Positions 25,571-43,748 of a DNA stretch of 52,649 nt are shown here, in pieces. The stretch's first letter is position 1; every line of letters starts with the position of its first letter. The translations under genes and the position numbers were made by a program. The stretch comes from a bacterium. GTDB taxonomy: Bacteria; Patescibacteriota; Saccharimonadia; Saccharimonadales; JACDBH01. The stretch covers positions 1 to 52,649 of the forward strand of contig JAKQIK010000045.1 in the NCBI GenBank assembly GCA_029557395.1, read 5' to 3'. The notes under the pieces are model-generated. The model did no database searches and was not told where the DNA came from. It worked only from the letters and a program-made list of their open reading frames with translations.

Positions 25571-25624
25571 ATGAGCTCACTGCAAATCGGTATTGTTGGG
25601 ACGCTACCCTACCTTTTAAATTAA
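25571..25624 (+). pseudogene. ychF: displaced original 5' end of ychF (start codon + 9 codons) left at attL
   Basis: ATG AGC TCA CTG CAA ATC GGT ATT GTT GG encodes MSSLQIGIVG. It then runs into island DNA and stops after 17 codons. Joining it to 43740 onward restores MSSLQIGIVGLPNVGKST. Confidence 0.75.
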
Positions 25625-25712
25625 CCTTTAAGATGCCCTCTACCGATAGAGGCAAACGCGGATATTCAGACAAATACACTGAAGAACTAGCGAAGAAGGT
25701 TTACTAAGCCAA

Positions 25713-26720
25713 TCAGGACGTCAGATTTGCTTTATTGATTTCAGTTTTAATCTCATCAAGTGTTAGCCGCCTGGCTTGTAGTTCTTTGATTTTTTCAACT
25801 GTCTTTAGGCTACTCTCATTAAACCATCTGTAGCCGCCGTCAGTAGTTTTAGCTACTTTTAATAGCCCCTCATTGGTCCAGAACCGTATCGTACTAGTTG
25901 GCGTATCGCTGACCCGAGCTAATTCTCCAATCTTAAGTAGACGCTCCTCTTTAACTCCCCTTGGCTTTTTATTACCAAGATATACATCAAGTGAGCTATC
26001 TACAGCTTTAATAACCAATGAGTAGAAGTCATTCAAGTCACCAGTCATATGGGCTTTTTCTAGAGCATTGATATAATCTTCCCTCTTATCATTTCCAATA
26101 ACGGTAATGGGATAATTGGCTTGCATAAGAAGTAAGTTCATAAGCAATCGTGCGGTTCGTCCATTACCATCTACAAAAGGGTGTATTCTAACTAGCTTAT
26201 AGTGAGCATCAGCAGCAACAATAACTGGATGCGTCTCACTCTTACTCTTTAGCCAAGTAAAAAATTCTTCCATTAACTCAGGTACTTTAAGTGGATCTGG
26301 TAATTCAACGTCAGAACCAGCTATCGCAACTGGTACGTTACGATACTTTCCAGCGTTTTCATCATCAATCTTTTGCAAAATGAGCTTGTGAATGTTCATT
26401 ACATCTTGCTTGGTGAGATCTTGCTGCTTAGTATTCGCAGCTAGATCTTTAACGTAATCAATTGCTTCGGCGTGGTTGGTAGCCTCTAAGTGTTCAGTTA
26501 ATGTTTTACCTTTAACCGTAACGCCCTTTTCTATTACAAGTGCAGTTTCACGACGATTGAGCGTGTTGCCCTCAATAGCATTTGAGTTATACGTCAGCTC
26601 AACCTTAAACCATTCACTCAGGTTTTTTAGATAGTCGGTAGATAATGGACGCAATTTTTGAAGTTGGTCCTTCTTATCTGTGAGCCTTTGAAGTGTTACT
26701 TGTAAGTTTGAAGTTGTCAT
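25713..26720 (-). CDS. Fic-domain protein fused to a C-terminal MerR-type HTH
   Basis: Fic motif HPFVDGNGRTARLL (HxFxDGNGRxxR). C-terminal KIGELARVSDTPTSTIRFWTNEGLL...GYRWF is MerR-like. Confidence 0.85.
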   Translation of the reverse strand: MTTSNLQVTLQRLTDKKDQLQKLRPLSTDYLKNLSEWFKVELTYNSNAIEGNTLNRRETALVIEKGVTVKGKTLTEHLEATNHAEAIDYVKDLAANTKQQDLTKQDVMNIHKLILQKIDDENAGKYRNVPVAIAGSDVELPDPLKVPELMEEFFTWLKSKSETHPVIVAADAHYKLVRIHPFVDGNGRTARLLMNLLLMQANYPITVIGNDKREDYINALEKAHMTGDLNDFYSLVIKAVDSSLDVYLGNKKPRGVKEERLLKIGELARVSDTPTSTIRFWTNEGLLKVAKTTDGGYRWFNESSLKTVEKIKELQARRLTLDEIKTEINKANLTS

Positions 26721-26786
26721 ACTTTATACCTTTACTTTAAACTTTAACTTTTAGTATATCACAAACTTAAAGTAGATCAACCCCCT

Positions 26787-27872
26787 CGTAATGACTCAAT
26801 ACCTTTGCAACATAGCCCTGGTTGGCGTTAGCCAACCAAAATGTGGCTGTTCTACACTGTAAGAGTACAAAATCTAAACAGGAGAACAGCCACATGAGCT
26901 ATTCTAACAACCCTTTACTACCAAAAGCGAGAGCCGAAGCGGTACGCCTCGTGGTCGAGCGTAACATACCCCCAGCAGTTGCCGCTCGCAAGAGCGGTAT
27001 CCACCGCACCACGCTGTGGCGCTGGCTACGGAAGTGGCATACACTCAACCAGAATGTCCAGCTCACCAACGACAACCGTCCAGGGCGGAACAATGCTGTC
27101 ACGGGTGTGAGTAGCTTCCGCTTGAGTGCCTGTGTCTGGAATATACCAACCAGGAGTAGCCGTCCCCGCTTCTTTGGGCGAGCAGTCTCAGTAGCGGTCG
27201 TAGACCGCATTCGGTACTACCGAAACAGGTACCAGCGTTGTGCGACCATTGTCCACGCCTACTGCCAGCGGGAGGGTACCGTCGTGTCCCTCAGCACGGT
27301 ACGACGGGTGCTGTACCGACTGGGGCTAGTGGTTCGCAAGAAGTGGCAACGCAAGTGGCGACCGCCACTGCCACGACCAGATGCAACCAAACCAGGTGAC
27401 CTGGTGCAGACCGACACCGTCCATCTGTACGACCACCGCACCAAACAACGGACATATTTGTACACTCTTGTTGACGTCTACAGCAGATGGGCGTACGCCG
27501 AGCACCACACCAGGCTGGGGCAAGACATTGCGGCGGATGTTATCCGCCGCAGCCAGGCCCATGCAGGGTTTCACTTTACGACCGTCCAAGCAGACAACGG
27601 CCCAGAGTTTGGCAGACACTTCGAGGAGTTGTTACAGGCACAGGGGGCAGTAGTACGTCACAGTAGGGTCAGGCGCCCCAATGACAATGCCCACATTGAA
27701 AGGTTTAACCGGACAGTCCAGGAAGAATGCACGGGCAGTAGCTGCCCGGTCGCTACCAATTTACAAGGCAAGGTACTAGCGTACCTTGCCTACTACAACC
27801 AAGAGCGGTTACACTTGAGTTTGCAGTGCAGAACACCGCTTGAGATGTTGCAAAGGTGTTGAACTAATTACG
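26787..27872 (+). mobile_element. intact IS481-family insertion sequence (1086 bp)
   Basis: Imperfect terminal inverted repeats: CGTAATGACTCAATACCTTTGCAAC (26787-26811) vs the reverse complement of GTTGCAAAGGTGTTGAACTAATTACG (27847-27872). 6-bp direct target duplication CCCCCT (26781-26786 and 27873-27878). Single DDE transposase ORF. Visibly much more GC-rich than its surroundings. Confidence 0.85.
26894..27862 (+). CDS. IS481-family DDE transposase (rve integrase core)
   Basis: N-terminal HTH (SGIHRTTLWRWLRKW) and DDE core (VQTDT..., VQADNGPEF, NDNAHIERFNRTVQEE). AGGAG Shine-Dalgarno 9 nt before ATG 26894. The stop lies inside the right inverted repeat. Confidence 0.88.
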   Translation: MSYSNNPLLPKARAEAVRLVVERNIPPAVAARKSGIHRTTLWRWLRKWHTLNQNVQLTNDNRPGRNNAVTGVSSFRLSACVWNIPTRSSRPRFFGRAVSVAVVDRIRYYRNRYQRCATIVHAYCQREGTVVSLSTVRRVLYRLGLVVRKKWQRKWRPPLPRPDATKPGDLVQTDTVHLYDHRTKQRTYLYTLVDVYSRWAYAEHHTRLGQDIAADVIRRSQAHAGFHFTTVQADNGPEFGRHFEELLQAQGAVVRHSRVRRPNDNAHIERFNRTVQEECTGSSCPVATNLQGKVLAYLAYYNQERLHLSLQCRTPLEMLQRC

Positions 27873-27950: not shown

Positions 27951-29528
27951 ATGAAGGTAGCAATATACTTACGAGTTTCAACACTCGACCAAGCAACAAA
28001 AAACAATCAGCGAGAAGGTTATTCTATCCCTGCCCAACGTGAAGCGTGCAGAAGAAAAGCTAAAGAGCTGGGTGCTACTCGCATAAGGGAGTATGCAGAT
28101 CGTGGCGAGTCAGCTCGTTCAGCATCCAGACCGGAACTACAGCGGTTATTACACGACTTATGTGATAAGAAACAAAATATCCAATGCGTTATCGTCCACA
28201 AAATAGACCGATTAGCTCGTAATCTTCACGATGATGTAATGATAGGCTTAGCTATTAAAAAGGCTGGGGCGACGCTTATCTCCGTAACCGAGAATATAGA
28301 CGAAACACCATCCGGTAGGTTGCTGCACGGCATAATGGCAACTATTGCTGAATTCTATAGCAGAAACTTAGCAGCTGAGGCGTTGAAAGGAGCAACAGAA
28401 AAAGCCAAGCGAGGAGGTACGCCCTTCCAAGCACCAATCGGGTACATAAATGTGACGGAGCGTGTTAACAGGCGCGAGGTTCATACGGTTGCCCTAGATC
28501 AATCAAGAGCGCCACTTATACGCTGGGCTTTCGAATGCTACGCAACGGGTGACTACAGTGAGTTAGAGTTATTAGACCAATTATCTAAACGTGGCTTGCG
28601 TACCAGGCTTCGTTCTCGGTCAAAGGTAGAGCCGATAAGCCACGGTGGTCTCAATAAACTTTTACAAAACCGCTACTACCTTGGCTATGTAACGTATTGC
28701 GGAATTGAGTACAAAGGAAATCATCAACCGCTAGTAACGCCCGCTGTATTTGCCGCCAGTCAAGCTATCCGTGAAAGTCGATATCGTTTGAGCCGAAAAA
28801 ATCGCAGCCACAACCACTACCTATCCAGGCTGTTGCTGTGCAGCCGGTGTAATAGGCACTTATGTTATATGGTCAGTAAACATAAGTATGAATACTATTC
28901 GTGTTTAAACCGTAAAAATCAACAGTGCAACCAGCCATACATACCGGCTCAGAAGATAGAACAAGAAGTTATCAACCAGCTTAAACTCCTAAACCTATCT
29001 GCTTCAGATCGCCAAAAGTTATCCGAGCAAATTGAAAACGAGCTTGGCAGTGAGAGAGCCTACGCTGAAACTGATACCAAAGCTCAAACTCAGCGAGTAT
29101 TGCGGCTTCAGGCAGAGAAGGAAAATTTACTCCAAACGTACTATGACAAAGTCATCTCTGCGGACCTATTCAAGAGTGAGCAGAAACGTATTGATAAAGA
29201 AATACGCCAAGCTCAGGGAGTGACTATAGAGGCAACAAGGCGATTAAAGATTATTGATGGACGTCAGGCTCGTGCTTTAAAAATGGTCAAAGAATTAGAT
29301 TTTTCCAAGGCTTATATCAATGCAGATCCAGCCATACGACGCCATTTTTGTAAGGCTCTGTTTGATAAGTTAGCTGTTAACGATGAGGTGATAATTCAAC
29401 GAAACGCTTATAGATATCCCCGCGAACATCACGTTACAATCACAAAAGTAATGTGGCAAAACCCTATAAACATCCATCATCTTACCAACGCCATACTAGC
29501 CATATCCCTAAAAAAGCGTAGTTCTTAA
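27951..29528 (+). CDS. large serine recombinase (SR1)
   Basis: Resolvase catalytic domain MKVAIYLRVSTLDQ, recombinase domain, Cys-rich zinc-ribbon region, and coiled coil. AAGGAGG Shine-Dalgarno. Confidence 0.88.
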   Translation: MKVAIYLRVSTLDQATKNNQREGYSIPAQREACRRKAKELGATRIREYADRGESARSASRPELQRLLHDLCDKKQNIQCVIVHKIDRLARNLHDDVMIGLAIKKAGATLISVTENIDETPSGRLLHGIMATIAEFYSRNLAAEALKGATEKAKRGGTPFQAPIGYINVTERVNRREVHTVALDQSRAPLIRWAFECYATGDYSELELLDQLSKRGLRTRLRSRSKVEPISHGGLNKLLQNRYYLGYVTYCGIEYKGNHQPLVTPAVFAASQAIRESRYRLSRKNRSHNHYLSRLLLCSRCNRHLCYMVSKHKYEYYSCLNRKNQQCNQPYIPAQKIEQEVINQLKLLNLSASDRQKLSEQIENELGSERAYAETDTKAQTQRVLRLQAEKENLLQTYYDKVISADLFKSEQKRIDKEIRQAQGVTIEATRRLKIIDGRQARALKMVKELDFSKAYINADPAIRRHFCKALFDKLAVNDEVIIQRNAYRYPREHHVTITKVMWQNPINIHHLTNAILAISLKKRSS

Positions 29529-29540
29529 CAAACCCAGAGG

Positions 29541-30887
29541 CTAGAGGGTTATGCTGTTGCATAGATTGAGGACTTTGGTATTGATGTCCTCACCTTCTAC
29601 TTTGTAGTCAGGTGTATTTTTATCTGCATCATTGACTACCCAATAATTACCAATCCCGAAATTATGTGTTGGCAACGAAAACACTGCATCTATTTTATTT
29701 TTTGTAAACATATTGACACTAACTCCTATAATTTCGCTGTGTTTACGCATTTCTTCGGTGATCCTGAAACACCTTTTAGCTACCCCGTCTTGATAGTACG
29801 TTAGCCCGAACGTTACCGGTAGACGCTTACGAACTTGATAGCGCCTGTCATCTTCGTAGCTTTCTACTAGCTTATCTACATAATCCTCGACTGAGCGGCG
29901 CGTTCTGTTGACCTTGTGTATGCCGTGCCTCCAACGAGACGGCATAGTCCAGTAAAGTTGCTCCTGGGCAAATTCAAAATCTTTGCGGCTAACTAACGCT
30001 TCGAAAGCATCCTCGCACCTAACCCACTCTTCTACGGGGTTTTTGCGTTGTCTTTGCTTTAGTCGACTCCAGGTTTTGTTATACAACTTAGTCCCCGTGT
30101 AGGTTTCATTACCCAGGACACGAACAACCTTTGACGCATCCCACTCCTTACCCGTGGCTGACACAACGGCATTTTCGTTTAATTGATTAGCGATGTCTTC
30201 GGGCGGAATGCCTCGCTTTACAAACATTGCGAAGATATCCTTTACTACTTGCTCTGAGCCATCATTCGCAGGCTCAAAAGTAACCCGTTGATTTGCTATA
30301 ACCTTGTGTTCGCCCTTTTTTAGTATGCCGACCCTCTTCTTATTTTCATCAAATAGCACGCGCACATACCCATAGGGCGCTGTACCACCAGCCGAAAATC
30401 CCTGCTCAGAAATTTTCATACTCCCGTGCCATACCTTATCGCTTAATTGCCTGCTATATTCAGCAGCCATATACCGACCGATTGATGTTTCAAGGCTAGA
30501 TAGCAATTTTTCCTCTTCCTTTGGGAAACCTCTGGAAATGTATATCACCTTTTTGTTTCTTTTCTTACACTGCATCTCCCAATAAGCAGCTTCGTCAGGG
30601 TCCTGAAAACGCCCCCACCTTGTAACATCTAAAACGAGTACATAGTCAAACTCCTGAGCATCTGGATTTAAGACCCAATCTTCAAACAGTCGTTCAAAAC
30701 CTGGACGTGCAGCTGATAAACCACTTTTACCTTCATCAGCCTCTTCGTGGATTATCTCAATGCCATACTTTGCCGCAAACCCATTAGCCTGGTCTCGCTG
30801 GATAGGCACAGAGTTTTCTTGCTTATCTTCTGCTGAGTGACGGTAATATGCCACCGCTTTCTTCTTTATACCCTCCGTGCCAAACAT
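29541..30887 (-). CDS. large serine recombinase (SR2)
   Basis: Resolvase-type N-terminus (AVAYYRHSAEDKQENSVPIQ) followed by a recombinase domain. Convergent with SR1, with stop codons 12 bp apart. Confidence 0.8.
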   Translation of the reverse strand: MFGTEGIKKKAVAYYRHSAEDKQENSVPIQRDQANGFAAKYGIEIIHEEADEGKSGLSAARPGFERLFEDWVLNPDAQEFDYVLVLDVTRWGRFQDPDEAAYWEMQCKKRNKKVIYISRGFPKEEEKLLSSLETSIGRYMAAEYSRQLSDKVWHGSMKISEQGFSAGGTAPYGYVRVLFDENKKRVGILKKGEHKVIANQRVTFEPANDGSEQVVKDIFAMFVKRGIPPEDIANQLNENAVVSATGKEWDASKVVRVLGNETYTGTKLYNKTWSRLKQRQRKNPVEEWVRCEDAFEALVSRKDFEFAQEQLYWTMPSRWRHGIHKVNRTRRSVEDYVDKLVESYEDDRRYQVRKRLPVTFGLTYYQDGVAKRCFRITEEMRKHSEIIGVSVNMFTKNKIDAVFSLPTHNFGIGNYWVVNDADKNTPDYKVEGEDINTKVLNLCNSITL

Positions 30888-30894: not shown

Positions 30895-31764
30895 CTATAG
30901 CGCCTCATTTAGTAGTTTTTTAAGTTGATCAAGAAAAGCCTTCTCTTGCGAACTAAACGCAACACCTTCGGCTCTCTTCTGACTAATGCCCTTGATAAGT
31001 TGCTCAATGTGTAAAGAGAAACCTGATTGCAGGGTTCTCTGTTCAAGCTCGTGGACCGTCATATCAGGGTCTGCTAAGTATCGAGCCAGCTCCTCTTCAT
31101 TCGCCGTTGCCCGCAAGAATATACTGCCGAGCTTGCGTAGCTCCTTGGCATTTTTAATAACCTTATGCTGGATGCGATTAAAAAGGTTAATGATTATGTC
31201 GTCTACTTCCACATTACGGATTTTGCGTAGTTTCGGTTTAAGCCTTACAAATTCAATACGGTAACTTTCACTTAAATCGTAACGCTCCATTAATTCAATG
31301 TAATCCATTTTTTGTTTACGCAGTTGGAGCGAATTAGCAACAACTGCCTCTGTTATACCTAAGTGATCTGCAAGCTGACGGTTGCTTGAAAAGCCCATTT
31401 CAGCCTTAATCCTTTCTAAGGCTTCAGATCGCTCCATTGGCTTCCAGGAACGGCGATTGTTTTGGATTTCATACCTACGTGTTTCTAGTTCAGCATTTGA
31501 TAATTTGGGATACACCCGGCAAGGAACCTGCTCATATCCAAGCTTCTGAGCGCAAATATAACGCCTGTGACCGTCAATAATGATGTAACGACCATCTTCT
31601 AACTCACTAACTGAGATAGGGTTTTCTATGCCGTACTGCTCAATAGATAGCAATAACCTATTGGTGTCACCCTCTGTACCGAAATCACGACGGGGCTGAT
31701 TTACATCTCTTTGAATTTTACCGACTGGAATTTCAACAAAGGTATAACCGTACTTGTGGACCAT
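30895..31764 (-). CDS. ParB/Srx-like N-terminal domain protein with HTH
   Basis: IIIDGHRRYICAQKLG (ParB GxRR box-like) and HTH SNRQLADHLGITEAVV. Lies directly upstream of SR2 on the same strand. Confidence 0.7.
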   Translation of the reverse strand: MVHKYGYTFVEIPVGKIQRDVNQPRRDFGTEGDTNRLLLSIEQYGIENPISVSELEDGRYIIIDGHRRYICAQKLGYEQVPCRVYPKLSNAELETRRYEIQNNRRSWKPMERSEALERIKAEMGFSSNRQLADHLGITEAVVANSLQLRKQKMDYIELMERYDLSESYRIEFVRLKPKLRKIRNVEVDDIIINLFNRIQHKVIKNAKELRKLGSIFLRATANEEELARYLADPDMTVHELEQRTLQSGFSLHIEQLIKGISQKRAEGVAFSSQEKAFLDQLKKLLNEAL

Positions 31765-31948: not shown

Positions 31949-32920
31949 TTATGGCTCGTTAATACTTTGAATAATCCAATCAAAGCGTCGGATTTGCTTT
32001 ATCGATTGGTGATGAACCATCAATGCCTTATAGCTTGCTACGTTACGCACATTTAAGTTTCGTTTCATTTTATTCTGTGCGTCCTTATCAAGTCTTCGTC
32101 CTGACGACCAAAGATCAACACCCAGATACGACACCCCTTTACGCACAGGATTTATGAGGTTTACATTAGGATTAACATCCAAATTAAGTTCGTACGTCAG
32201 AAAGTCTTCTGCCTTTTTACGTGCATTTTCTAGTTTTACCTTATCATCCATAAAGCATAACCAATCGTCACCATAACGAAGGTACGCATTCGGCTTTATT
32301 CTGTGCGTGATATAACGATCAAATTCGTTTAGGTAGATGTTTGCTAGGATTTGACTAGTGAGATTGCCGATTGGGATACCTCTGTTATTATCAAAGCTAC
32401 GATAACTTTCTATAGTCTCGCTCAATAGCCACAAGGCTGTCGGGTCACTTACCCGTCGTCTCAGTAATCGTAACAGCGTACTCTTATCAACTGAGTCAAA
32501 TAACTTTGTTACGTCCCCGCGCCAAAGCCACCCGTCTTTATATTGCCGCATAAATTTTTGCGCTCTATCTATTGCACCGTGCAAACCTTTATTCTGCCTG
32601 CACGACCAGGCATCATAAATGAACGTTTTATCCCAGATTGTAACTAAATAATCGTAAAGCAATCGATGCACAACTCTATCGCGAACAGACGCCACAGCAA
32701 TGTCTCGTCGCTTGTTGTCATTAACGATCATATGTGAATAAGGACCGTGTTTGTAAGTGCCAGTTTGGAGTTCAGTAGCCAATTTGAGGATATTATCAAG
32801 TAACTCGTATTCGAACTCTGTAGTAGCACGACTTGGTTTTTTGCCCCTACGAAAAGCTACATACGAACGCCATACGTTTGCTAAACTGATATCTATGGAA
32901 GAATTACCCGTCATCACCAT
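31949..32920 (-). CDS. diversity-generating retroelement reverse transcriptase
   Basis: 323 aa. RT motifs RDRVVHRLL, IPIGNLTSQ (the DGR-specific [I/L]GxxxSQ signature) and YLRYGDDW (YxDD). No maturase or endonuclease domains. Confidence 0.93.
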   Translation of the reverse strand: MVMTGNSSIDISLANVWRSYVAFRRGKKPSRATTEFEYELLDNILKLATELQTGTYKHGPYSHMIVNDNKRRDIAVASVRDRVVHRLLYDYLVTIWDKTFIYDAWSCRQNKGLHGAIDRAQKFMRQYKDGWLWRGDVTKLFDSVDKSTLLRLLRRRVSDPTALWLLSETIESYRSFDNNRGIPIGNLTSQILANIYLNEFDRYITHRIKPNAYLRYGDDWLCFMDDKVKLENARKKAEDFLTYELNLDVNPNVNLINPVRKGVSYLGVDLWSSGRRLDKDAQNKMKRNLNVRNVASYKALMVHHQSIKQIRRFDWIIQSINEP

Positions 32921-33233
32921 TGCCTTTGAAATTTACAAAAAATTACTGGAATTAAACACCAAGTTGGACAAGAAGTACCGCTATTCGCTCGGTGAACAAG
33001 CAGCAAAGTGCTGGTCAGATACCCTAGAGCAGCTACTATTAGCAAAACACGCTCCAAAACCAATGAAAGCAAGCTACCTCCTTAGGGCAAATGCTCTTGC
33101 CGAGATGACTTCGTTGCATCTTAGAGCCATCCTTGAATTAAAGCTCACCAACGAAACGAACGTACTTAAAGTCCAAGCACGCCTGAGCGAAGCACGCCGA
33201 ATGATCGGCGGCTGGCTCAAAAGCGTGCATTAG
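32895..33233 (+). CDS. avd: Avd-like four-helix-bundle accessory protein (opposite strand to RT/TR)
   Basis: 112 aa, helical, and basic at the C-terminus (EARRMIGGWLKSVH); resembles Avd / 23S-IVS four-helix-bundle proteins. ATG 32895 was chosen because the upstream part of the ORF-track ORF overlaps the RT gene on the opposite strand. Confidence 0.7.
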   Translation: MEELPVITIAFEIYKKLLELNTKLDKKYRYSLGEQAAKCWSDTLEQLLLAKHAPKPMKASYLLRANALAEMTSLHLRAILELKLTNETNVLKVQARLSEARRMIGGWLKSVH

Positions 33234-33251
33234 ACCAACACTGATACACCA

Positions 33252-35716: not shown

Positions 35717-35783
35717 TCTCTCGCTCTCTGTTGGGCAAGCTGATAATCTAAACTTATGAAAAATGCTTTATTGTAAGCGTCGA

Positions 35784-36347
35784 CTACTGGAGGTTTACCT
35801 TTACACCACCTGAGAAGGAACTATCGTGTAGTTCAGCAGTGGTAATCTTTGCACCAGCAGGTACATCAAACAAAATGTCACCTTTTACGCTGTTACCTGG
35901 ATTTATTTGGTCAAACCAAGTACTACCCGAATTGCCTGATGATGCATAGATGGTAGCTGTATCATCGGCAGCAAACTGTTGACCCTCAGCGTTTAATAGC
36001 TTTTGATCGCTTGATAAGAGGCTTTGAGCCTCATCACCTATGTTCTTAATGCTAAGGCTAAGACGACAAAACTCACCCTGTGCTTTTTCGTTTAAGTACT
36101 GGTCTCCTACTGATTTCTCACCACATTTAATGCTGGCTACAGTAAATTCAAACTTGCCATCACGTGCCGGTTCGCCAATTTTAGCCGTTGTTGCTTTTTC
36201 TTCGGTCTTCTCAGACGCATTATTATTTCCACTGTTGCTCTGGTTTGAGGTGGTGCTAGAACCGCCACCCGCTGCACCTATAATGCCCCCAACTACTAAC
36301 AACGCTAGAATTGCTGTTATTATCTTGTGTTTTTTGAACCAATTCAC
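35784..36347 (-). CDS. DUF4352-like membrane-anchored extracellular Ig-like protein
   Basis: N-terminal TM, Ser/Asn/Gly-rich linker, then KIGEPARDGKFEFTV...FCRLSLSIKNIGDEAQ, which is typical of DUF4352. Confidence 0.65.
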   Translation of the reverse strand: MNWFKKHKIITAILALLVVGGIIGAAGGGSSTTSNQSNSGNNNASEKTEEKATTAKIGEPARDGKFEFTVASIKCGEKSVGDQYLNEKAQGEFCRLSLSIKNIGDEAQSLLSSDQKLLNAEGQQFAADDTATIYASSGNSGSTWFDQINPGNSVKGDILFDVPAGAKITTAELHDSSFSGGVKVNLQ

Positions 36348-36455
36348 TTATAAACTCCTTGTTTAAGTTATCTCTATAAAAATTTATCATATATTATCAA
36401 CAAAATAAACAGTTAGTTTATGTAACTATCTGTTTATTATTTCTACGCTTAGTGT

Positions 36456-36683
36456 ATGACAGGTACACGTGATCAAAAGTTAATGAAAGCATTTGGTAGA
36501 AGGGTTGCTGAGGTTCGCAAGAGCCGTGGAGTTACGCAACAAGAACTTGCAGAACGTATCAATATGAGCGTAGTTGCAATAGCCTATATAGAGACCGGTA
36601 AACGATGGGCGCGGCTTAGTACACTTAGCAAAATTGCAAAAACACTAAAAGTGAACATAAGCGACCTTTTTCAGGGACTTTAA
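36456..36683 (+). CDS. XRE-family HTH transcriptional regulator
   Basis: 75 aa. RKSRGVTQQELAERINMSVVAIAYIETGKR matches the Cro/C1-type HTH. Confidence 0.85.
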   Translation: MTGTRDQKLMKAFGRRVAEVRKSRGVTQQELAERINMSVVAIAYIETGKRWARLSTLSKIAKTLKVNISDLFQGL

Positions 36684-36919
36684 AAACTAATTTTATATGG
36701 ATTTTAAAAGTCATAGCGGGGGCTACCCCTGTTAATTCTCAGAAAAAAGACTCCGCTGTATCAATGCCGAATTTTTTCGGGAGCAAAATGACCAAGCATT
36801 TTTTTGCCTAGTGATATATTGCGCTAGCGTTACTTTATCGATGAGGCAACCAGTAGATGTACTAGTTTTTGATATAATTATAAGTAGGTACAAAGATTAT
36901 ATGAAAATGAGGCTTAGCA

Positions 36920-38377
36920 GTGTCAAACGAGGGGAAAAATGAGAATGTAAATCAAGGTCAGACAAAATATGATCTTGATTTAGATGCCCCCACAGAAAAG
37001 AAAACTGAAGTAGAGCCTAAAACTGTTGAGCTAACTGTTGTTAAGCGAGCGCGTGAACAAGCAACAAAACAGCAAAAAGACGTCCAGGAAACTCTGAATG
37101 AACGCCTGAGAACTAGTGGAGCTTTTGCAGCCGTAGTTAAAGTTAATTCGGTTCAGGGTAGCCTTGCAAAAGCACTTGGCTTTCAAAGTAACATAAATCA
37201 GGTCTTTAAGAGTGTTGGCGCGGCATTTCAAGCTACGCAACCCGCTCTTCAACTCGCTCAACAAATGGCAGAGGCTCACAAGAGTATTACTAGGACAATG
37301 CAGCCGATGCTTGAAACAATGCGACGGCTTGGTGAGAAGATCCAAAAAATGTTCGAGGCACTGAGAAAATCTCTTCCCTCCTTCTCTAGCATCTTCAAAA
37401 AAATTGGGTCAGGGATTACCAGCCGTATCGCCCCATTAGTACAGACAGTTATCTCAAAGTTTGCCAATTTTAAACCGCCGCCAATCACCAACTTCCTAAA
37501 ACAATGCGTCGAGCAGATCAGCAAATTCACACGTACAGTTTTTGGTCATATTGACTTCGGCAAGATATTCCAGCCTCTTGCTGACTTTTTTAAGCTACTC
37601 TCAAAAAGCAACTTCTATCTAGTCGTAAAAGCGTCTGAAGGCGACTCCATAGCGTCATATCAATTAGCTAAGATGTGGTGGAAGCTTGGACGTGAATATT
37701 ATAGGCTTGAACGATTACAGGGTCGTGAGCCAACCGAGGATGAGTTCGAGCATATTATTCAAACTACTTGCCTAGAGATTTTAAGAGAAAATGAACACAA
37801 AAGTATGGGTTGGGGATTAAAAGCAGCTCAGACGGTCTTTTATAGTCTGGTGCATCACTTAATGGCACAGTACATCCTCATTAACGACAATAAAGCTGCA
37901 TCCGAATGGGTTGAATTTAACGTCTATATTGATGAGAAGAATAACAAAGAATATCTGTTCCTGGGTACTATTGCTCGGCAAGTTGGCATATCTGACCAGA
38001 CACTGCGAAACTGGATTAGGTCCGGTGAATTAGAAGTCATTAAAACTTCGTTCTACTCGAAACTACGCAGCTCAAAAGCAACTGCATTTCTTATTCCATA
38101 TCGAGAAGGAATAGTTACTGAATTGAATAAAATAAAAGCTGAGAAACAGATGGCACAACGCCATCAGAGAGATGATCTTTATACCGTATCTCAAGTTGCT
38201 AATGTTATAGGAGTTAGCACCAAAACACTTAAGCGATGGGATGCAAGAGGCATTTTAGTACCTAGGCGCATAAAAACAATCCGTTATTATACTACTGAGC
38301 AAGTAAAGACCATCCCTACCATCCTGGAACAAAATAATAGCCCGAGAACTATTGAACTGAGACAACGCTTCGCGTAG
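36920..38377 (+). CDS. 485-aa protein: coiled-coil N-terminal half and two MerR/excisionase-type HTH motifs in the C-terminal half
   Basis: GTG start with GAGG upstream. HTH-like segments TIARQVGISDQTLRNWIRSGEL and YTVSQVANVIGVSTKTLKRWDARGIL. Confidence 0.6.
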   Translation: MSNEGKNENVNQGQTKYDLDLDAPTEKKTEVEPKTVELTVVKRAREQATKQQKDVQETLNERLRTSGAFAAVVKVNSVQGSLAKALGFQSNINQVFKSVGAAFQATQPALQLAQQMAEAHKSITRTMQPMLETMRRLGEKIQKMFEALRKSLPSFSSIFKKIGSGITSRIAPLVQTVISKFANFKPPPITNFLKQCVEQISKFTRTVFGHIDFGKIFQPLADFFKLLSKSNFYLVVKASEGDSIASYQLAKMWWKLGREYYRLERLQGREPTEDEFEHIIQTTCLEILRENEHKSMGWGLKAAQTVFYSLVHHLMAQYILINDNKAASEWVEFNVYIDEKNNKEYLFLGTIARQVGISDQTLRNWIRSGELEVIKTSFYSKLRSSKATAFLIPYREGIVTELNKIKAEKQMAQRHQRDDLYTVSQVANVIGVSTKTLKRWDARGILVPRRIKTIRYYTTEQVKTIPTILEQNNSPRTIELRQRFA

Positions 38378-38398
38378 TTAACTTTTTTATTACCACAT

Positions 38399-38422
38399 AA
38401 GCCCGGAGCACCGGGCTTTTTA
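38399..38422 (+). terminator. rho-independent terminator
   Basis: AAGCCCGG-AGCA-CCGGGCTT hairpin followed by TTTTT, 21 nt after the stop of the 485-aa gene. Confidence 0.75.
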
Positions 38423-38495
38423 AGTTACCCCTGTTAATCCCAATGTCCTGGGCTTTTTTGGCTTATTACAAGTGAAAACACTATGGAGAAATTAA

Positions 38496-38738
38496 ATGAA
38501 CGATGACGATCAATACTTTGAGACAACAGACCTTGGGCTGAGTACCACCATTGTAACACTTGGCTTTCGCCTTCACTCCCTAGACAGAAGTAACCCAAGC
38601 AGGGTGAAGTTTGTCTTTCGCAGAGAAGACAAGCTAGAAGATATCGTAAGAGCCTACTGGCAGAAGGAATTATCCGTTGAACCACTCGGCTACTTTAACA
38701 ACGTCAAGTTAATGAAGAACAGGATTTATTCGAGGTAA
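38496..38738 (+). CDS. small hypothetical protein (DUF5659-like)
   Basis: 80-aa ORF just upstream of the P-loop gene, pattern FETTDLGLSTTIVTLGF...VKFVF. The family assignment is from memory only. Confidence 0.45.
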   Translation: MNDDDQYFETTDLGLSTTIVTLGFRLHSLDRSNPSRVKFVFRREDKLEDIVRAYWQKELSVEPLGYFNNVKLMKNRIYSR

Positions 38739-38743
38739 CGACT

Positions 38744-40120
38744 ATGACAATGAAGCAAAATGATAATGAAAATGAAGAACAACAAAAAACTGTAGAGACG
38801 GTTAACCTTGATAGCGCACCACGTATTCTAGCGGTCCCAACACCAGATAAAACCGTCTCGTTCAGTGAATGGCGAGGCGTTATAAATGACAACTTCCCCG
38901 ATCTGCTATTTGCTGCTGAAATTGGCTTGTCGATTATCGCACAGATACTCATAAAAGATGTTACAAATCCCTTTGCTCTGGTGCTAGTTGATGTCCCCTC
39001 GGCAGGTAAAACCATCACTATCAACTTTTTTTCGGAGATCGAGGGGCTTACCTACGCAACAGATAAATTTACGCCTGCGTCGTTTGTTTCAAATGCTGCC
39101 AATGTCAAAAAAGAAAAGCTAAGAGAAGTCGATTTACTGCCACGACTACAATACAAACTGTTCCTTATCAGAGACTTGGCGACACTATTTTCAAAGCGTG
39201 ACGACGACTTAAATGAGTGTCTAGGAATTTTAACTCGCGTGCTTGACGGCGAAGGCTTCAACACCGATAGCGGCATTCACGGACAGCGTCAATATGTTGG
39301 CGAGTATCTCTTTATGGTTCTGGCAGCTTCTACCCCCATTCCACCTCGGGTATGGAAAATGATGGGCAACCTTGGGTCAAGGCTGTTCTTCCTTAATATG
39401 AACTCCAAAGACAAGTCTGAGGACGAACTTGCCGAACAGCTTGGCTCTACAGCCTATAAGACCAAAGAAAAAGCCTGTAAAACCGTTACTAAACAGCTAC
39501 TTGAAACGCTCTGGTCTAAATACCCAGAGGGTCTGGATTGGGATAACACCCAGGATGAGCGCGATCTGAAGCTTATCATTGCGCGTTGCGCTCGTCTCCT
39601 AGCTTGTCTGCGAGGTGTTATTAACCTTTGGAAAGATCGGGGTGAAGATGGCACAGAGTACAGCTATACTACGCCAACCGTTGAAAAGCCGGACCGTATT
39701 AACCAACTTTTTTACAACCTATGCCGAGGACACGCTTTGGTTAACGGAAGAACACAGCTAACAAGAGATGATGTGCGCCTAGCAATCGAGCTAGCCATAG
39801 ATAGCGCTCCTACAGTCAGAACTCGCCTTTTCCGGGCATTACTCGAACTAGGCGGTGAAATCTGCACTACGGCAGTAGAGGCGATCCTTAACTGCTCTAA
39901 GCCGACTGCATTAAAAGAAATGGAGTCACTCAAAATACTTGGTCTTTGCACTATCAGCCAAGAGAGCCAAGGACGAGTTGGCGAACCTGAAAAGATTATG
40001 AAATTGGACAGTAGTTTTGATTGGTTTCTGAGTGATGAATGTAAGGCAATCCGCAACTCAGATGCTCCAACAACCAATAAAGAAAATCTGACGTTGTGGA
40101 AGGAGGAAGCTATGACCTGA
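38744..40120 (+). CDS. P-loop NTPase with C-terminal winged-helix-like region (possible replication/mobilisation initiator)
   Basis: Walker A VDVPSAGKT, Walker B-like KLFLIRD. The C-terminal segment TTAVEAILNCSKPTALKEMESLKILGL looks like a wHTH. Confidence 0.55.
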   Translation: MTMKQNDNENEEQQKTVETVNLDSAPRILAVPTPDKTVSFSEWRGVINDNFPDLLFAAEIGLSIIAQILIKDVTNPFALVLVDVPSAGKTITINFFSEIEGLTYATDKFTPASFVSNAANVKKEKLREVDLLPRLQYKLFLIRDLATLFSKRDDDLNECLGILTRVLDGEGFNTDSGIHGQRQYVGEYLFMVLAASTPIPPRVWKMMGNLGSRLFFLNMNSKDKSEDELAEQLGSTAYKTKEKACKTVTKQLLETLWSKYPEGLDWDNTQDERDLKLIIARCARLLACLRGVINLWKDRGEDGTEYSYTTPTVEKPDRINQLFYNLCRGHALVNGRTQLTRDDVRLAIELAIDSAPTVRTRLFRALLELGGEICTTAVEAILNCSKPTALKEMESLKILGLCTISQESQGRVGEPEKIMKLDSSFDWFLSDECKAIRNSDAPTTNKENLTLWKEEAMT

Positions 40121-40163
40121 TAAGCCAATCCCTAAACAAGCTATATAGATTAAATGAGGAGAA

Positions 40164-40373
40164 ATGATTATGGATACTAAATGTAAAGGAATAGATACTT
40201 ACGGTGATTTTTGTGAAGCACTACATAAAGCAGTTTTCGGTGACAAATGCGTATTCTGCCCAAAGAAACGTTATAGCAAGAAAACTGTCTGTAAAACGTG
40301 CTATGACAGCTGTCCGAATAAAAAGCCTGTCTACGACGAAGTTGCCGTTCGCGTCAAAATTCGGAGGAGTTAA
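40164..40373 (+). CDS. small Cys-rich (zinc-finger-like) protein
   Basis: 69 aa with CVFC...CKTC...C pattern. Confidence 0.45.
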   Translation: MIMDTKCKGIDTYGDFCEALHKAVFGDKCVFCPKKRYSKKTVCKTCYDSCPNKKPVYDEVAVRVKIRRS

Positions 40374-40376
40374 GTT

Positions 40377-40751
40377 ATGAGCCACGACGCAATAGATCAG
40401 GCTATAGATATCTTAGAAAAGAACAGCGAAGCTTCAGATAGAAACCAAGGTCAACGGCGCGGGAAATACTATGACGACGAGAAGGATCAGCCACAACACT
40501 TCTCTTGGGTTCATATAGACGTAGAAGCCCCTAACTGCTGTACGGATACTTCAAGCTGCATTATGTACGGTGATGCCGAGGAAATGCAGCAACAGTTCTT
40601 AGACTATGCACGTCATATGGTTACACCGGATCTGCTACAGATGATAAGGGATAGAAAACTTGTGCATATCACGCTTCGCATTGGACCGCGATCATTAAGT
40701 GGTGTTGACCTGAATGATGACTACGGGATCGAGGTGAAATATGAGCAATAA
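40377..40751 (+). CDS. hypothetical protein
   Basis: 124-aa ORF tightly spaced with its neighbours (starts 4 nt after the previous stop and overlaps the next gene by 11 nt). Confidence 0.45.
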   Translation: MSHDAIDQAIDILEKNSEASDRNQGQRRGKYYDDEKDQPQHFSWVHIDVEAPNCCTDTSSCIMYGDAEEMQQQFLDYARHMVTPDLLQMIRDRKLVHITLRIGPRSLSGVDLNDDYGIEVKYEQ

Positions 40752-41388
40752 CAAACCGAGTAAAAAGAACGGCAAGAAATTAGCTAAAGAGTTCACTCCC
40801 GATGAAGTTAAGCGGATGCTCAAAAATGTTGAAATTGAGATTGACCCCGCTGCCCTACTGAAAAAATCAGCTGATATGTGGAACGAGTACGAAGCAAGTA
40901 GTCCAGCTAAGAAAAAGGCATTGGTTGACGATCTTAACAAGAAGCTAGAGCAAGCTTCAGCTATAGTCACACTGGAAAACCACTACCTTTTAGCCGAGAC
41001 ACTTGATAGCAAAAAGTACAGAACCTTCTTAATCGAAGTTACCGATCAGCTCATAGCAGAATATGAATGTAAGACCACTTCAGAGAAGATGTTGGCGCAA
41101 ACAGCCGGTTGGGCGTATTGCCGGATGATCGAGTATGGTTACAAGCTCAATTCGATTACTAGAATAGACTTTCTAAGTAGCGAGAAGAATGGTTACTACT
41201 CTGTGCTGAGCAAGGAAGTAGACAGATGCGCCAGGCAGTACTTATCGGCTATTAATACCCTTAAGCACTTCAAGCAACCAGCATTAAAGGTGTCTTTTAA
41301 AGCTAACAATGCCTTCGTAGCCCAGAACCAACAAATCAACTCAAAGACTAAAGATAAGTCCGAGGCACAAAACAATGTCGGGCAATGA
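40741..41388 (+). CDS. hypothetical protein (basic N-terminus)
   Basis: 215-aa ORF that overlaps its neighbours at both ends in the manner of translational coupling. Confidence 0.5.
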   Translation: MSNNKPSKKNGKKLAKEFTPDEVKRMLKNVEIEIDPAALLKKSADMWNEYEASSPAKKKALVDDLNKKLEQASAIVTLENHYLLAETLDSKKYRTFLIEVTDQLIAEYECKTTSEKMLAQTAGWAYCRMIEYGYKLNSITRIDFLSSEKNGYYSVLSKEVDRCARQYLSAINTLKHFKQPALKVSFKANNAFVAQNQQINSKTKDKSEAQNNVGQ

Positions 41389-41710
41389 TTACGGAAACTC
41401 TCCAGCAAGTGACACCGTCAACTCAATTAGCGTTGATGAGGTTGTAAAGTCGCTTCGCACACAGTTTGAAGAAAGTCTTATCCAGGAGCCGGTTTACATC
41501 GGTGATATGCAAGTTAACTTAGTAACAACTTCTACTGGACACGGCGGACAACGGTACTGGTTTATTTGCCCCGCCTGTAAGACCCGTGTTGCAAAACTGT
41601 ACGTACAGGTGTCACTAATAGCCTGTAGGCATTGTCACGGTCTCAAGTATCGATCCAGCCGCTATAAGGGTATGGTCGAAGAACAAATTTTTAAGAAGGA
41701 GCAGTCGTAG
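41375..41710 (+). CDS. zinc-ribbon protein
   Basis: 111 aa, CPAC...CRHC four-Cys ribbon. Confidence 0.5.
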   Translation: MSGNDYGNSPASDTVNSISVDEVVKSLRTQFEESLIQEPVYIGDMQVNLVTTSTGHGGQRYWFICPACKTRVAKLYVQVSLIACRHCHGLKYRSSRYKGMVEEQIFKKEQS

Positions 41711-41713
41711 GTT

Positions 41714-41833
41714 ATGCCGCGCAAAGTTGTTAAACCAGTGATCAAGTACCAGCTTAGTCCAGATGCCCCTGCGGATGCAGTTGATGAGGTATTTGATTAC
41801 TTGCTTGATATGTTCTTTGCGCAACAAACATAA
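41714..41833 (+). CDS. possible 39-aa acidic small protein
   Basis: ATG 41714 lies 4 nt after the previous stop. Translation MPRKVVKPVIKYQLSPDAPADAVDEVFDYLLDMFFAQQT. Below the ORF-track size cut-off. Confidence 0.3.
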   Translation: MPRKVVKPVIKYQLSPDAPADAVDEVFDYLLDMFFAQQT

Positions 41834-41891
41834 CCGTAGTATTATTATTTATAATGGTTTATAATTATTTATAGTAACGAAAGGATCAACT

Positions 41892-42071
41892 ATGGAAAAG
41901 TATCTAACTGTTACAGAGGTTGCTGAGCGTTTACAGGTTCATTGGCAAAGCGTTCTTACCTATATAAAAAATGGCGAATTAGAGGCAGTAAAACTTGGTC
42001 GCGGATATCGAATAGGCGAGCAAGCTATTGGGGAGTTCATTAAAAAACGCACAACAAAAAGGAAAGATTAA
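41892..42071 (+). CDS. excisionase-family HTH DNA-binding protein (candidate recombination directionality factor)
   Basis: 59 aa: MEKYLTVTEVAERLQVHWQSVLTYIKNGELEAVKLGRGYRI matches the excisionase/MerR-superfamily HTH. Its stop is immediately followed by the integrase ATG (TAA ATG). Not in the ORF track because it is under 60 aa. Confidence 0.75.
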   Translation: MEKYLTVTEVAERLQVHWQSVLTYIKNGELEAVKLGRGYRIGEQAIGEFIKKRTTKRKD

Positions 42072-43748
42072 ATGAAACGATCTGCACTCTACGCCAGGGT
42101 TAGCACAGATAACCAAAAGGACGAACAAACCATTGAAACCCAACTTCACGAAATCCGTGAGGCTATCAAAGCAGACGGCTGCGTGCTTATTGAGGATTGT
42201 GTTTATAAAGATGAGGGTTGGTCTGGTGCATTTCTTGAACGCCCTGCCCTAGATCAACTACGACAAGATGCCAAGCTAAATAAGTTTGATATTGTTTACG
42301 TTTTTGACCGCGGTCGACTTTCCAGGAAGTTTGTATATCAAGAAATTGTCATAGAGGAGCTAGGACACTCAGGAGTTGAGTTCAAAAGCCTTCACGATGT
42401 AAATGGCACGACCCCTGAAGAGCAGCTTATGGGTAGTGTTATGGGTGTCTTCCACGAATATGAGCGAGTTAAAATTGCTGAACGGTTTCGACTTGGTAAG
42501 TTGAATAAGGTACGTGGTGGAAACCTTCTTGGCTACAATCCGCCTTACGGATATAACTATATCCCTGTTAAAGGCAAGGGCGTAAACAAACAAAACGGCT
42601 ATTTTGAGATTAACGAACAAGAAGCAAAAGTAGTTCGAATGATGTTTGAATGGGTAGGCATAGAGGGCATATCGCTGCGTGAAGTTATACGACGCTTATA
42701 TGAGTTAGAAATTCCACCAAAGAAGGGTAAACGAGCATCTTGGACCAAAGGACCGGTGAGCAGACTGCTAACTAATGAAACTTATGTTGGTCGACATTAT
42801 TACTACAAATTAGAAGCAGTGCTTCCTCAAAACCCCCAAGCAAAATCAACCCAGAAATATAAACACCGGCACACCAACAAAACCAGCCGTAATGTTAGAG
42901 ATAAAGAAGAATGGCTTATGGTAAAAGTGCCTGTAATAGTTGACGAGGCATTATTTGATAAAGTCCAAAAACAAATTAAGTTGAATGCAAAATTTGCTCA
43001 ACGTAACAAGCGACACAAATACCTCTTTGGCGGGCTTGTATGGTGTCCTTGTGGTGCTAAGCGTGTTGGCGATGGTCCTGATGGCAAGAAGTACTATCGC
43101 TGCACTGACAGGCTTCACAACTTCCCCTTGCCTACTGTTTGTAAAGAAGCTGGGGTTAATGTAACCGTACTTGATGCCACAGGTTGGGAGAAAATTTGTG
43201 ATCTCTTAACTAATCCCGATCTTATTAAGCAACAAGTTCAGCGATACGCTGACAAGAAAATTGATAAGGCTAAAGAGAATGCTAGCAGTAACGACGTTAA
43301 GCAAAATCTCAAAATGCTAGAAGAGGAAGAGCGCCGATACGCAAAAATGTACGGACAAACGCTAATGAGCGAGGAGGTTTATCAAGAACAGATAAAAAGT
43401 GTCCGTAAACGTCGTGAGGAGCTGTTAAAGCTACAATCAGAGCCTGTTGAGAATCAATTAAGCCAACTCCAGAATATGGACCTAGATCACCTAGCAAAAG
43501 GCTTCAACGAGTTTATGGCTAAACTTCCCTTTGAGGGTAAGCTTTTTACTGTTCGTAAGATAGTTGATAAAGTGATAGCAACAAAAGAAGAAGTTACCAT
43601 ATCGGGCTTTATACCTACTATGGAGAGTATCACTTCGGGAAAGGAAAGATTTCGTGCTGAAGATAGCGATTATTGGAACTCTAACATACCTAATGAAGGT
43701 GGAAAGGTAGGATTGCGTGCTATCAATCGGTATTGTTGGTCTACCTAA
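42072..43748 (+). CDS. large serine recombinase (SR3), the likely island integrase
   Basis: MKRSALYARVSTDNQ catalytic domain, recombinase domain, zinc-ribbon (CPCG...CTD...C), coiled coil. Its last 8 codons span the attR core and its stop codon lies in host ychF DNA. Confidence 0.88.
   Translation: MKRSALYARVSTDNQKDEQTIETQLHEIREAIKADGCVLIEDCVYKDEGWSGAFLERPALDQLRQDAKLNKFDIVYVFDRGRLSRKFVYQEIVIEELGHSGVEFKSLHDVNGTTPEEQLMGSVMGVFHEYERVKIAERFRLGKLNKVRGGNLLGYNPPYGYNYIPVKGKGVNKQNGYFEINEQEAKVVRMMFEWVGIEGISLREVIRRLYELEIPPKKGKRASWTKGPVSRLLTNETYVGRHYYYKLEAVLPQNPQAKSTQKYKHRHTNKTSRNVRDKEEWLMVKVPVIVDEALFDKVQKQIKLNAKFAQRNKRHKYLFGGLVWCPCGAKRVGDGPDGKKYYRCTDRLHNFPLPTVCKEAGVNVTVLDATGWEKICDLLTNPDLIKQQVQRYADKKIDKAKENASSNDVKQNLKMLEEEERRYAKMYGQTLMSEEVYQEQIKSVRKRREELLKLQSEPVENQLSQLQNMDLDHLAKGFNEFMAKLPFEGKLFTVRKIVDKVIATKEEVTISGFIPTMESITSGKERFRAEDSDYWNSNIPNEGGKVGLRAINRYCWST

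Follow-up and report, generated by a model that had tools for sequence, protein, structure and literature searches.

An integrative element in the start of ychF of a Saccharibacterium appears to carry its attachment site within its own serine recombinase gene

How can a mobile element of 18 kb lie within the first codons of ychF, leave that gene with an intact open reading frame (ORF), and what does insertion at such a place do to the enzyme that makes it? The question is raised by a 52,649-nucleotide stretch of bacterial DNA (contig JAKQIK010000045.1 of assembly GCA_029557395.1, hereafter the window), in which an earlier reading made by a model from the letters alone (the sequence-only reading) had recognized an island inserted in the start region of ychF. 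The answer we favor, with a probability of roughly 85%, is that the island is an element whose large serine recombinase (LSR) targets ychF, that its attachment site attP lies within the LSR gene, and that integration splits the C-terminal tail off the recombinase. The anatomy by itself, as read from this and related sequences, is very probably as described here.

The two ends of the island carry the 15-bp sequence AATCGGTATTGTTGG, which occurs exactly twice in the window, and 100 dinucleotide-preserving shuffles gave no match. At the left end (attL), a promoter-like region is followed by an ATG and a mini-ORF of 17 codons, MSSLQIGIVGTLPYLLN. At the right end (attR), ychF begins at a GTG inside the 3′ end of the recombinase gene, the 365-residue ORF with its YchF domains sharing the last 32 nt of the 558-residue recombinase ORF. 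Fusion of positions 25571-25599 to 43740 onward yields MSSLQIGIVGLPNVGKSTLFN..., which restores the YchF N-terminus MSSLQIGIVGLPNVGKST. Each of these points had been made by the sequence-only reading and was recovered at the same positions, as was its placement of the insertion within ychF codons 5-10 with the ORF kept; the precise place is the GG of codon 7. Its further claim, that the promoter and first codons of ychF had been split off, agrees with the empty sites, a comparison that it had proposed. Element-free Saccharibacteria have an uninterrupted ychF that begins MSLSIGIVG or MSSLQIGIVG behind the same promoter-type 5′ end, with a TG-extended -10 (CTCTGTTAAAAT-like) directly upstream of the start in 24 of the 24 such sites tested. 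The intact ychF of two relatives (L010 and L016) begins MSSLQIG/AIVGLPNVGKS and equals the window mini-ORF up to the sixth residue, MSSLQI. We interpret the matching promoter and N-terminus in element-free genomes to indicate that the left junction is the true ychF 5′ end, now 18.1 kb from the remainder of the gene. The native -10 ends 9 nt before the ATG, a spacing from which the native ychF mRNA would be essentially leaderless.

Genes for a 791-residue and a ~180-residue protein, divergent from ychF, form the left flank both in the window and in a relative with a much smaller element (L124). In a search of one genome per species, the best YchF matches were metagenome-assembled genomes of Candidatus Saccharibacteria with at most 70% identity, which places the host in a Saccharibacteria (TM7) lineage without a close sequenced representative. 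Independent metagenome contigs span attL (L082 and L085) and attR (L089), and two more match the left host flank only (L083 and L084), all with 100% or near-100% identity. Since five independent contigs reproduce a junction or the host flank, assembly chimerism is ruled out. An exact-protein look-up of the 173-residue gene in the left flank found four contigs, all of them island-bearing, and both of those that reach the junction show attL.

The 5′ end that ychF has received in exchange is written in the recombinase gene. Across the family of related elements, the last LSR codons, which encode the motif K-V-G-L-x-A-x-x-R, contain in the +1 frame a Shine-Dalgarno (SD)-like AAGGTnGG; 7-10 nt further on comes ATG or GTG, and then codons for (S/L)-L-S-I-G. 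The window reads GGAAAGGTAGGATTGC-GTG-CTA-TCA-ATC-GG. The element swaps a leaderless-type promoter and start for an SD-led start located in its own recombinase gene. Decayed insertions support a dependence of ychF on this element-derived 5′ end. One of them (L023) retains a 122-residue ORF of the LSR C-terminus in front of ychF. In another (L015, positions 1100-1200), the final 66 bp of an LSR gene follow directly on the native promoter and codons MSSLQIA, and ychF restarts at an element-type ATG. This 66-bp piece begins just past an upstream, imperfect duplicate of the P arm of attP and looks like the scar of an excision or deletion that used the duplicate. The duplication itself (peptide VGLDVEHS ... 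VGLDAKHW) marks a subfamily of LSRs of 558-567 residues and is absent from members of 537-545 residues; the extra copy may serve as an accessory site or be left over from recombination between elements.

Such remnants raise the question whether the window copy has likewise become fixed and immobile, with the ychF 5′ end permanently element-derived and the LSR decaying or co-opted. Besides the 66-bp scar and the 122-residue ORF, isolated tail fragments are found in a third locus (L003), neither an empty site nor a circle was found for this strain, and much cargo has accumulated in the window copy, a transposase ORF included. We consider this improbable: the LSR gene, the small helix-turn-helix (HTH_17) gene ahead of it, the tail and both att arms are all intact in the window, and the same element is present in a different host. 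Locus L168 holds it at 95-99% nucleotide identity over 4.8 kb, next to a ychF that is 61-70% identical in DNA sequence to that of the window, and a near-identical element in hosts so divergent argues for recent transfer. In a further locus (L014), the LSR is 89% identical to that of the window and the adjoining YchF only 66%.

The pair of hosts also locates the crossover. Identity between the window and L168 drops from the element level to the host level right after ...GCTATCAATCGG (boundary ...ATCAATCGG); past the GG, L168 reads AATAGTAGG and the window reads TATTGTTGG. Because the identity ends after this GG, the element spans 25591-43730, and the crossover appears to be the GG at 25589-90 and 43729-30, with no target duplication. 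The nine bases TATTGTTGG that follow it are element DNA at attL and host DNA at attR; they agree at the two ends because the P′ arm of attP resembles Gly-Ile-Val-Gly codons and the host uses the same codons. The other 13 bp of the 15-bp repeat are identity between attP and the attB of this particular host. Searching for the longest common substring gave the right att core for the window only and chance 7-9-mers elsewhere, and was replaced by anchoring on the Ile-Gly codons. Both ends were recovered for five further elements, in which attL and attR have just the GG and a few flanking bases in common, and in L124 the GG alone. The window attP, reconstructed as 43680-43730 joined to 25591 onward, is an imperfect palindrome with 19 of 26 positions paired and its dyad center between G43729 and G43730. 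The best dyad center of all six attP sites is the GG (13-17 of 24 positions paired), and attB has no symmetry. The 15-bp repeat of the sequence-only reading is real, but not as a duplication or a 15-bp crossover, since only the GG is common to all relatives. We also considered a target-site duplication made by the rve-domain transposase encoded in the island and rejected it, since the repeat encloses the entire LSR element and attP/attB identity accounts for where it lies.

The gene at the right end, called an integrase in the sequence-only reading, does encode a recombinase; by sequence and structure tests it is a large serine recombinase and not a tyrosine integrase. The catalytic domain matches PF00239 (Resolvase, E = 4e-29) and the catalytic domain of TP901-1 integrase (E = 3e-18), and a Recombinase domain follows (PF07508, E = 5e-19). 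The catalytic residues R9-V10-S11-T12 are invariant across 42 LSR homologs, and C325, C327, C344 and C357 are invariant in LSR homologs. An AlphaFold2 (AF2) model of a full-length homolog, with a mean predicted local distance difference test (pLDDT) score of 84, shows catalytic, recombinase, zinc-ribbon and coiled-coil parts, with long helices at residues 379-451. In Foldseek, the PDB entries closest to this model belong to the SPbeta, phiC31, Bxb1 and A118 integrases (E = 7e-21 to 5e-13). At the sequence level, the enzyme shares only 13-20% identity with solved LSRs, or 32% over the TP901-1 catalytic domain alone, and it scores under every NCBIfam equivalog cut-off. Only serine recombinase domains were found in it, and not the tyrosine recombinase of known systems with attP inside int. 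That this enzyme recombines attP with attB is suggested indirectly by a permuted relative described below (L081) and by the presence of the same element in two hosts. The excisionase-like HTH_17 gene and the LSR gene also form a pair in four other loci (L124, L117, L168 and L086), and the HTH_17 protein is a candidate recombination directionality factor or regulator.

The LSR is matched by more than 1100 proteins at E <= 1e-10, and the organisms named for them are mostly Saccharibacteria, with two proteins assigned by name to other Patescibacteria, including Nomurabacteria. Of the 120 LSR clusters nearest to that of the window (44-97% identity), 112 terminate in a peptide like ..RRPAKCRQI.., which is the ychF codons for GLPNVGKS read out of frame. 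We further collected 79 metagenome loci with an LSR alignment: ychF overlaps the LSR end in 61 of these, another 4 reach the end of their contig with that same junk tail, 11 are cut off and the remaining 3 carry different tails. Across these loci the LSR is 40-100% identical to that of the window and the host YchF 44-94%. The sequences point to a large, previously unnoticed family of integrative elements whose LSR targets the 5′ end of ychF, the most conserved stretch of a conserved gene. Distant LSR homologs in L136, L156, L162 and protein P0102 have a different C-terminal tail (e.g. ..LPFLLQCKLLKDQKARVITGRNSLGRIIS..) and do not adjoin ychF; possibly they form a sister group that differs in tail type or in target. 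In L105 (1-909; 10001-11722), a tailed LSR, 34% identical to that of the window, lies ~9 kb upstream of a second, ychF-adjoining LSR, which suggests a tandem insertion of two family members with an attP-like hybrid at the inner junction. In L090 (Ga0073934_10020429), compared with window positions 33124-36033 and 42089-44138, the target region of a diversity-generating retroelement (DGR) is fused directly to the LSR; the ~6-kb core module (window 36034-42088) has no counterpart in this locus, owing either to a deletion or to mis-assembly.

A consequence absent from the sequence-only reading is that the recombinase is truncated by its own integration. The stop codon of the LSR gene (43746-48) is host DNA. 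Read across the reconstructed attP, the LSR ORF extends to 591 residues and ends ...NR-YCWDATLPFKLTFKMPSTDRGKRGYSDKYTEELAKKVY, against 558 residues in the integrated form. The tail contains LPFELKLTMPPTDRGGRGYS, and the consensus of the family is ..QLPFELKLTMPPTDRGGRGYSDEYVA... In four proteins that are 44-62% identical to the window LSR and do not adjoin ychF (P0019, with QQPFELKLTMPPTDRGGRGYSDEY, P0089, P0095 and P0111), the tail is contiguous with the LSR. At attL of 9 other integrated elements, the tail motif stands right after the ychF promoter and first codons, in LSR orientation and 6-11 kb upstream of the LSR. With the C-terminal 86 residues of P0019 as query, we retrieved 46 small ORFs or fragments, in which the consensus YRYCVTQQPFELKLTMPPTDRGGRGYSDEYVA..KEL is near-invariant. 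The differences among 13 tail DNA copies amount to 0.35, 0.25 and 0.61 at the first, second and third codon positions. The ratio of nonsynonymous to synonymous polymorphism (pN/pS) of the tail beyond the attP arm is 0.40 in the LSR frame versus 1.28 and 1.39 in the other frames, and 0.38 for the nine detached attL tails alone. The third-position variation and the low pN/pS in the LSR frame indicate that the detached tail is kept as coding sequence. The gene order in L081 is a circular permutation of integrated elements of the L117/L124 type, with the LSR followed by the tail and then by the left-end genes, which makes it either an excised circle or a tandem junction whose attP is intact. Residues 511-533, which the attP core encodes, form a low-confidence linker in the AF2 model, and the tail forms a strand (534-542) and a helix (555-566) with pLDDT 68-84 after two C-terminal strands. 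Judging from the model, the tail may be what completes a small C-terminal domain. Profile alignment with the SPbeta and phiC31 integrases stops ~45 profile positions before the C-terminus.

These results bear on two simpler accounts. One takes the island as an ordinary one: a generic integrase would cross over in the 15-bp repeat, its overlap with ychF would be incidental, and nothing would hang on its C-terminus. In favor of this account, the two ends do share the 15 bp, and many integrated copies keep their LSR ORF intact without the tail. Against it, the attL and attR of related elements share as little as GG, the identity with L168 ends after the GG and not after 15 bp, and more than 50 sequences show protein-level conservation of the tail, which is joined to the LSR whenever attP is intact, so that we regard it as very unlikely. 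Least probable is that the tail is an independent small gene or a DNA element beside attP, such as a binding site for an accessory protein: gene callers do annotate ORFs of 47-70 residues over it at many attL sites and its first codons coincide with the P′ arm, but attL has no conserved start ahead of it (in the window the first in-frame candidate is an internal Met), it is always in the LSR frame across attP in free forms with no stop between, the third-position variation and the pN/pS of 0.40 in the LSR frame only argue against a pure DNA site, and its modeled strand and helix follow the C-terminal strands of the LSR.

In the explanation we prefer, of an LSR element that targets ychF with an attP inside the recombinase gene, attB is the ychF start region, with the crossover at the GG of the Ile-Gly codons just ahead of the P-loop codons, and attP is an imperfect palindrome of ~50 bp centered on the same GG within the LSR 3′ end. 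Integration leaves the native leaderless-type promoter and ychF codons 1-6 at attL, and ychF resumes from the SD-like motif, a GTG or ATG and 3-4 mimic codons in the +1 frame of the last LSR codons (KVGLxAxxR). The same event cuts the LSR, exchanging its conserved tail of ~38 residues for 3-12 residues of out-of-frame ychF. The tail DNA is stored 6-18 kb away at attL, under purifying selection on the protein, and is contiguous with the LSR when attP is intact. So much comes from sequence comparison; by inference, ychF would be transcribed with the HTH_17-LSR operon or from within it. If the tail is, as we suppose, a structural part of the small C-terminal domain, its loss on integration and regain on excision may alter the activity, specificity or stability of the LSR, as experiments showed for the tyrosine integrase of phage Mx8 (see below). 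That recombination in this way reprograms the recombinase, the free form being integration-proficient and the integrated form inactive, excision-biased or unstable, is a tentative proposal to which we give somewhat less than even odds. If true, the LSR gene could be transcribed continuously to drive ychF without destabilizing the insertion, and the serine recombinases of hundreds of elements in ultra-small Patescibacteria would hold a self-encoded memory of whether the element is integrated.

Read-through from the HTH_17/LSR operon is a plausible source of ychF transcripts, the alternative being a promoter inside the LSR gene. Points in favor of read-through are the ORF overlap, the conserved SD-like motif and start, a promoter-like site upstream of the gene string (41848-41875) and the plus strand between 41500 and 44000, on which no terminator-like site was found. 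For a ychF promoter in the LSR gene, a sigma-70 scan gave 3 sites versus 4.9 expected, and a scan for extended -10 sequences found no conserved site near the new start; the only enrichment, 160-180 nt upstream, coincided with conserved coding sequence.

Several observations weigh against the explanation as a whole. For this strain and element we found no empty attB and no circular attP junction. The scans revealed no conserved ychF promoter within the LSR gene, and there are no capsid, conjugation or relaxase genes to explain the transfer of the element. The AF2 confidence for the tail is only moderate. The first three tail codons overlap the P′ arm, so that a small share of the conservation reflects the DNA itself (these codons were left out when the pN/pS of 0.40 was computed). 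Finally, truncated LSR ORFs are intact in dozens of integrated elements, and the tail is therefore clearly unnecessary for retention of the gene.

The window enzyme shares with the serine integrases of phiC31, Bxb1, A118, TP901-1, SPbeta (SprA) and with CcrB the same domain set, the R-V-S-T residues, the Cys4 zinc ribbon and the long coiled coil, and likewise an imperfect-palindrome attP of ~50 bp, a 2-bp non-palindromic crossover and no target duplication. Unlike in those systems, attP sits in the coding region of the enzyme, so that integration changes the protein, and the LSR 3′ end also supplies, from another reading frame, a new 5′ end for the target gene. In phiC31, Bxb1, A118 and TP901-1, attP lies outside int. 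The integrase of the archaeal virus SSV1 is a tyrosine recombinase, the gene of which is split into two large parts on integration at a tRNA gene; here, in contrast, a short tail is trimmed, ychF is targeted and the enzyme is a serine recombinase. For SSV1-type archaeal viruses, an attP within the integrase gene, which is partitioned on integration, is known (PMC8371274). For the Myxococcus xanthus phage Mx8, PMC6070905 (citing Tojo 1996 and Magrini 1999) describes an attP in int and an integration that produces a recombinant int with a new 3′ end and changed properties; the targets named there are the chromosomal sites attB1 and attB2, and not the start of a protein-coding gene (PMC6070905). 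The layout of Mx8 IntP/IntX is the same as here, but in a tyrosine recombinase of a single phage, versus a broad family of serine recombinases here. As the Mx8 and SSV1 enzymes are tyrosine recombinases, the window element works like them in layout and is not a member of either system.

Other precedents match in part. In mycobacteriophage BPs and its relatives, as Broussard et al. reportedly found in 2013, attP lies inside the repressor gene and integration removes a C-terminal degradation tag. A state-dependent C-terminus is common to both, in the repressor there and in the integrase here, where the tail is conserved inside and variable at its end. The integrase of a defective prophage of pneumococcus, which also neighbors ychF, is a tyrosine integrase. 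In this Streptococcus pneumoniae prophage, int is located immediately upstream of ychF and the element is reported to control ychF expression (PMC8637289); its attB is intergenic, between the gene for a DUF951 protein and ychF (PMC8637289). In the window, by contrast, attB is inside the ychF coding sequence, and the host phylum is unrelated. Islands in tRNA and tmRNA genes, and SCCmec in the 3′ end of rlmH, carry a copy of the displaced gene end that keeps the gene functional, and owe a broad host range to their conserved target. The logic of a conserved target is the same for these gene-restoring islands and the element described here, in which it is the 5′ end, with promoter and translation signals, that is replaced, in an alternative frame of the recombinase gene. 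A literature search of limited coverage found nothing combining Saccharibacteria and ychF, and no serine integrase described with attP inside its own gene. Relative to the precedents, what appears to be new is an attP within an LSR gene and an integration that swaps a conserved tail of ~38 residues.

Serine integrases are the main tools for unidirectional DNA integration, and the control of their directionality is an active structural question. An enzyme that is covalently different before and after integration would be a new control principle for the direction of serine integrases. A stretch of ~30 bp is LSR half-site and LSR coding sequence at once, and in another frame it provides ychF with its ribosome-binding site, start codon and first codons. 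Such an overlap illustrates how the 5′ end of a conserved gene can be taken over by an element, in a reduced genome of ~1 Mb, without loss of function. The mobile elements of Saccharibacteria and other Patescibacteria are poorly known, and this family is abundant and carries defense-type and DGR cargo. Its LSRs, together with defined attB/attP pairs, could become genetic tools for bacteria that are hard to manipulate.

The coordinates of the sites and genes are collected in Table 1.

Table 1 Sites and genes of the ychF locus and of the integrated element in the window (TR, template repeat; VR, variable repeat; RT, reverse transcriptase)
Feature	Position	Strand	Remarks
Orphaned native ychF promoter	25533-25561	+	-35 TTGTCT (25533-38), 17-nt spacer, TG-extended -10 tgtTAAAAT (25556-61)
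Mini-ORF MSSLQIGIVGTLPYLLN*	25571-25624	+	ATG 25571; 17 codons; native ychF codons 1-6 and GG of codon 7, then element DNA
Left 15-bp attP/attB identity (attL)	25585-25599		Probable crossover GG 25589-25590
Integrated element, GG to GG	25591-43730	+	18,140 bp; identity to L168 ends directly after GG 43729-30
Detached LSR tail, 38 codons (YCWDATLPFKLTFKMPSTDRGKRGYSDKYTEELAKKVY) and stop	25591-25707	+	LSR frame is joined only when attP is excised and intact; P′ arm makes up the first ~27 nt
Fic/DOC protein with C-terminal MerR HTH (SoFic / PDC-S04-like)	25713-26720	-	Cargo
Transposase ORF with rve (DDE) domain	26822-27862	+	54.7% G+C stretch versus ~40% in host
Two further LSR genes, convergent	27951-29528 (+, 525 aa), 29541-30887 (-, 448 aa)		Adjoin ParB-like gene
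ParB-like protein, ParB_N and HTH_ParB	30895-31764	-	Cargo
Diversity-generating retroelement (DGR)	31949-35634	-	RVT_1 RT 31949-32920; TR 33248-33358; VR 33657-33767
Core: DUF4352 protein	35784-36347	-	
Core: XRE HTH	36456-36683	+	
Core: 485-aa protein with MerR-type HTH	36920-38377		
Core: 458-aa protein, no family	38744-40120		
Core: small ORFs	40164-41710		
Promoter-like site upstream of HTH_17/LSR/ychF gene string	41848-41875	+	TTTATA, 16 nt, TATAGT; consensus match only
59-aa HTH_17 (excisionase-like) protein	41892-42071	+	Adjoins LSR start
Large serine recombinase (LSR), integrated truncated form	42072-43748	+	558 aa; last 5 codons and stop are host ychF out of frame
Imperfect duplicate of P arm inside LSR gene	43638-43667	+	21/30 identical; 63 nt upstream of P arm
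attP P arm GGAAAGGTAGGATTGCGTGCTATCAATCGG	43701-43730	+	+1 frame of LSR: SD-like GGAAAGGTAGG, GTG 43717, codons LSI-G
ychF with element-encoded GTG start, MLSIGIVGLPNVGKST...	43717-44814	+	365 aa; MMR_HSR1 and YchF-GTPase_C domains
Right 15-bp identity (attR)	43725-43739		GG crossover 43729-43730

The core module (35784-41710) is collinear with L014, with L168 and with the minimal element in L124; for L014 the collinearity with the window starts at 33774, where the retrieved L014 locus begins. Minimal relatives (L117 and L124) measure 6.0-6.4 kb. The order in L124 is the tail, a cargo gene and a DUF4352 gene (both of these genes on the opposite strand), the XRE gene, 2-4 unassigned proteins, HTH_17 and the LSR. 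The window copy reaches 18.1 kb because extra cargo, namely the Fic, transposase, two LSR, ParB-like and DGR genes, lies between tail and core. For the core proteins of 485, 458, 215, 124 and 111 residues, Pfam, NCBIfam, PHROGs and PADLOC returned nothing beyond HTH motifs.

As to the kind of element, a viral origin was considered and rejected when a scan of IMG/VR viral contigs with the LSR alignment found no relative. PHROGs searches on the element gave only regulators, excisionase-like HTH proteins and weak coiled-coil matches, with no structural phage genes. No relaxase, coupling protein or type IV secretion genes were found with Pfam and NCBIfam in the window element, L124 or L117, in a set in which several core proteins have no family. 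This integrative element may be a satellite, may be mobilizable or may spread through natural transformation.

Among the cargo, the G+C content of the patch with the rve transposase suggests a recent acquisition from a different host, and the two extra LSR genes could be a nested element or an invertase-type module. The retroelement is a complete DGR on three counts: an RT, a TR/VR pair of 111 nt and 77% identity with mismatches nearly all at TR adenines (A-to-N), and a VR at the 3′ end of its target gene (33655-35634), which encodes a 659-residue protein of no known family. A weak bAvd match lies on the strand opposite the DGR. Contig L082 ends at 33659, the edge of the VR, as expected if the VR is heterogeneous in the population. 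At the left end of the island, the orphaned ychF promoter (region 25533-25712) now faces into the element, toward the 3′ end of the convergent Fic gene, where it could give rise to the 17-residue peptide and to an RNA antisense to Fic.

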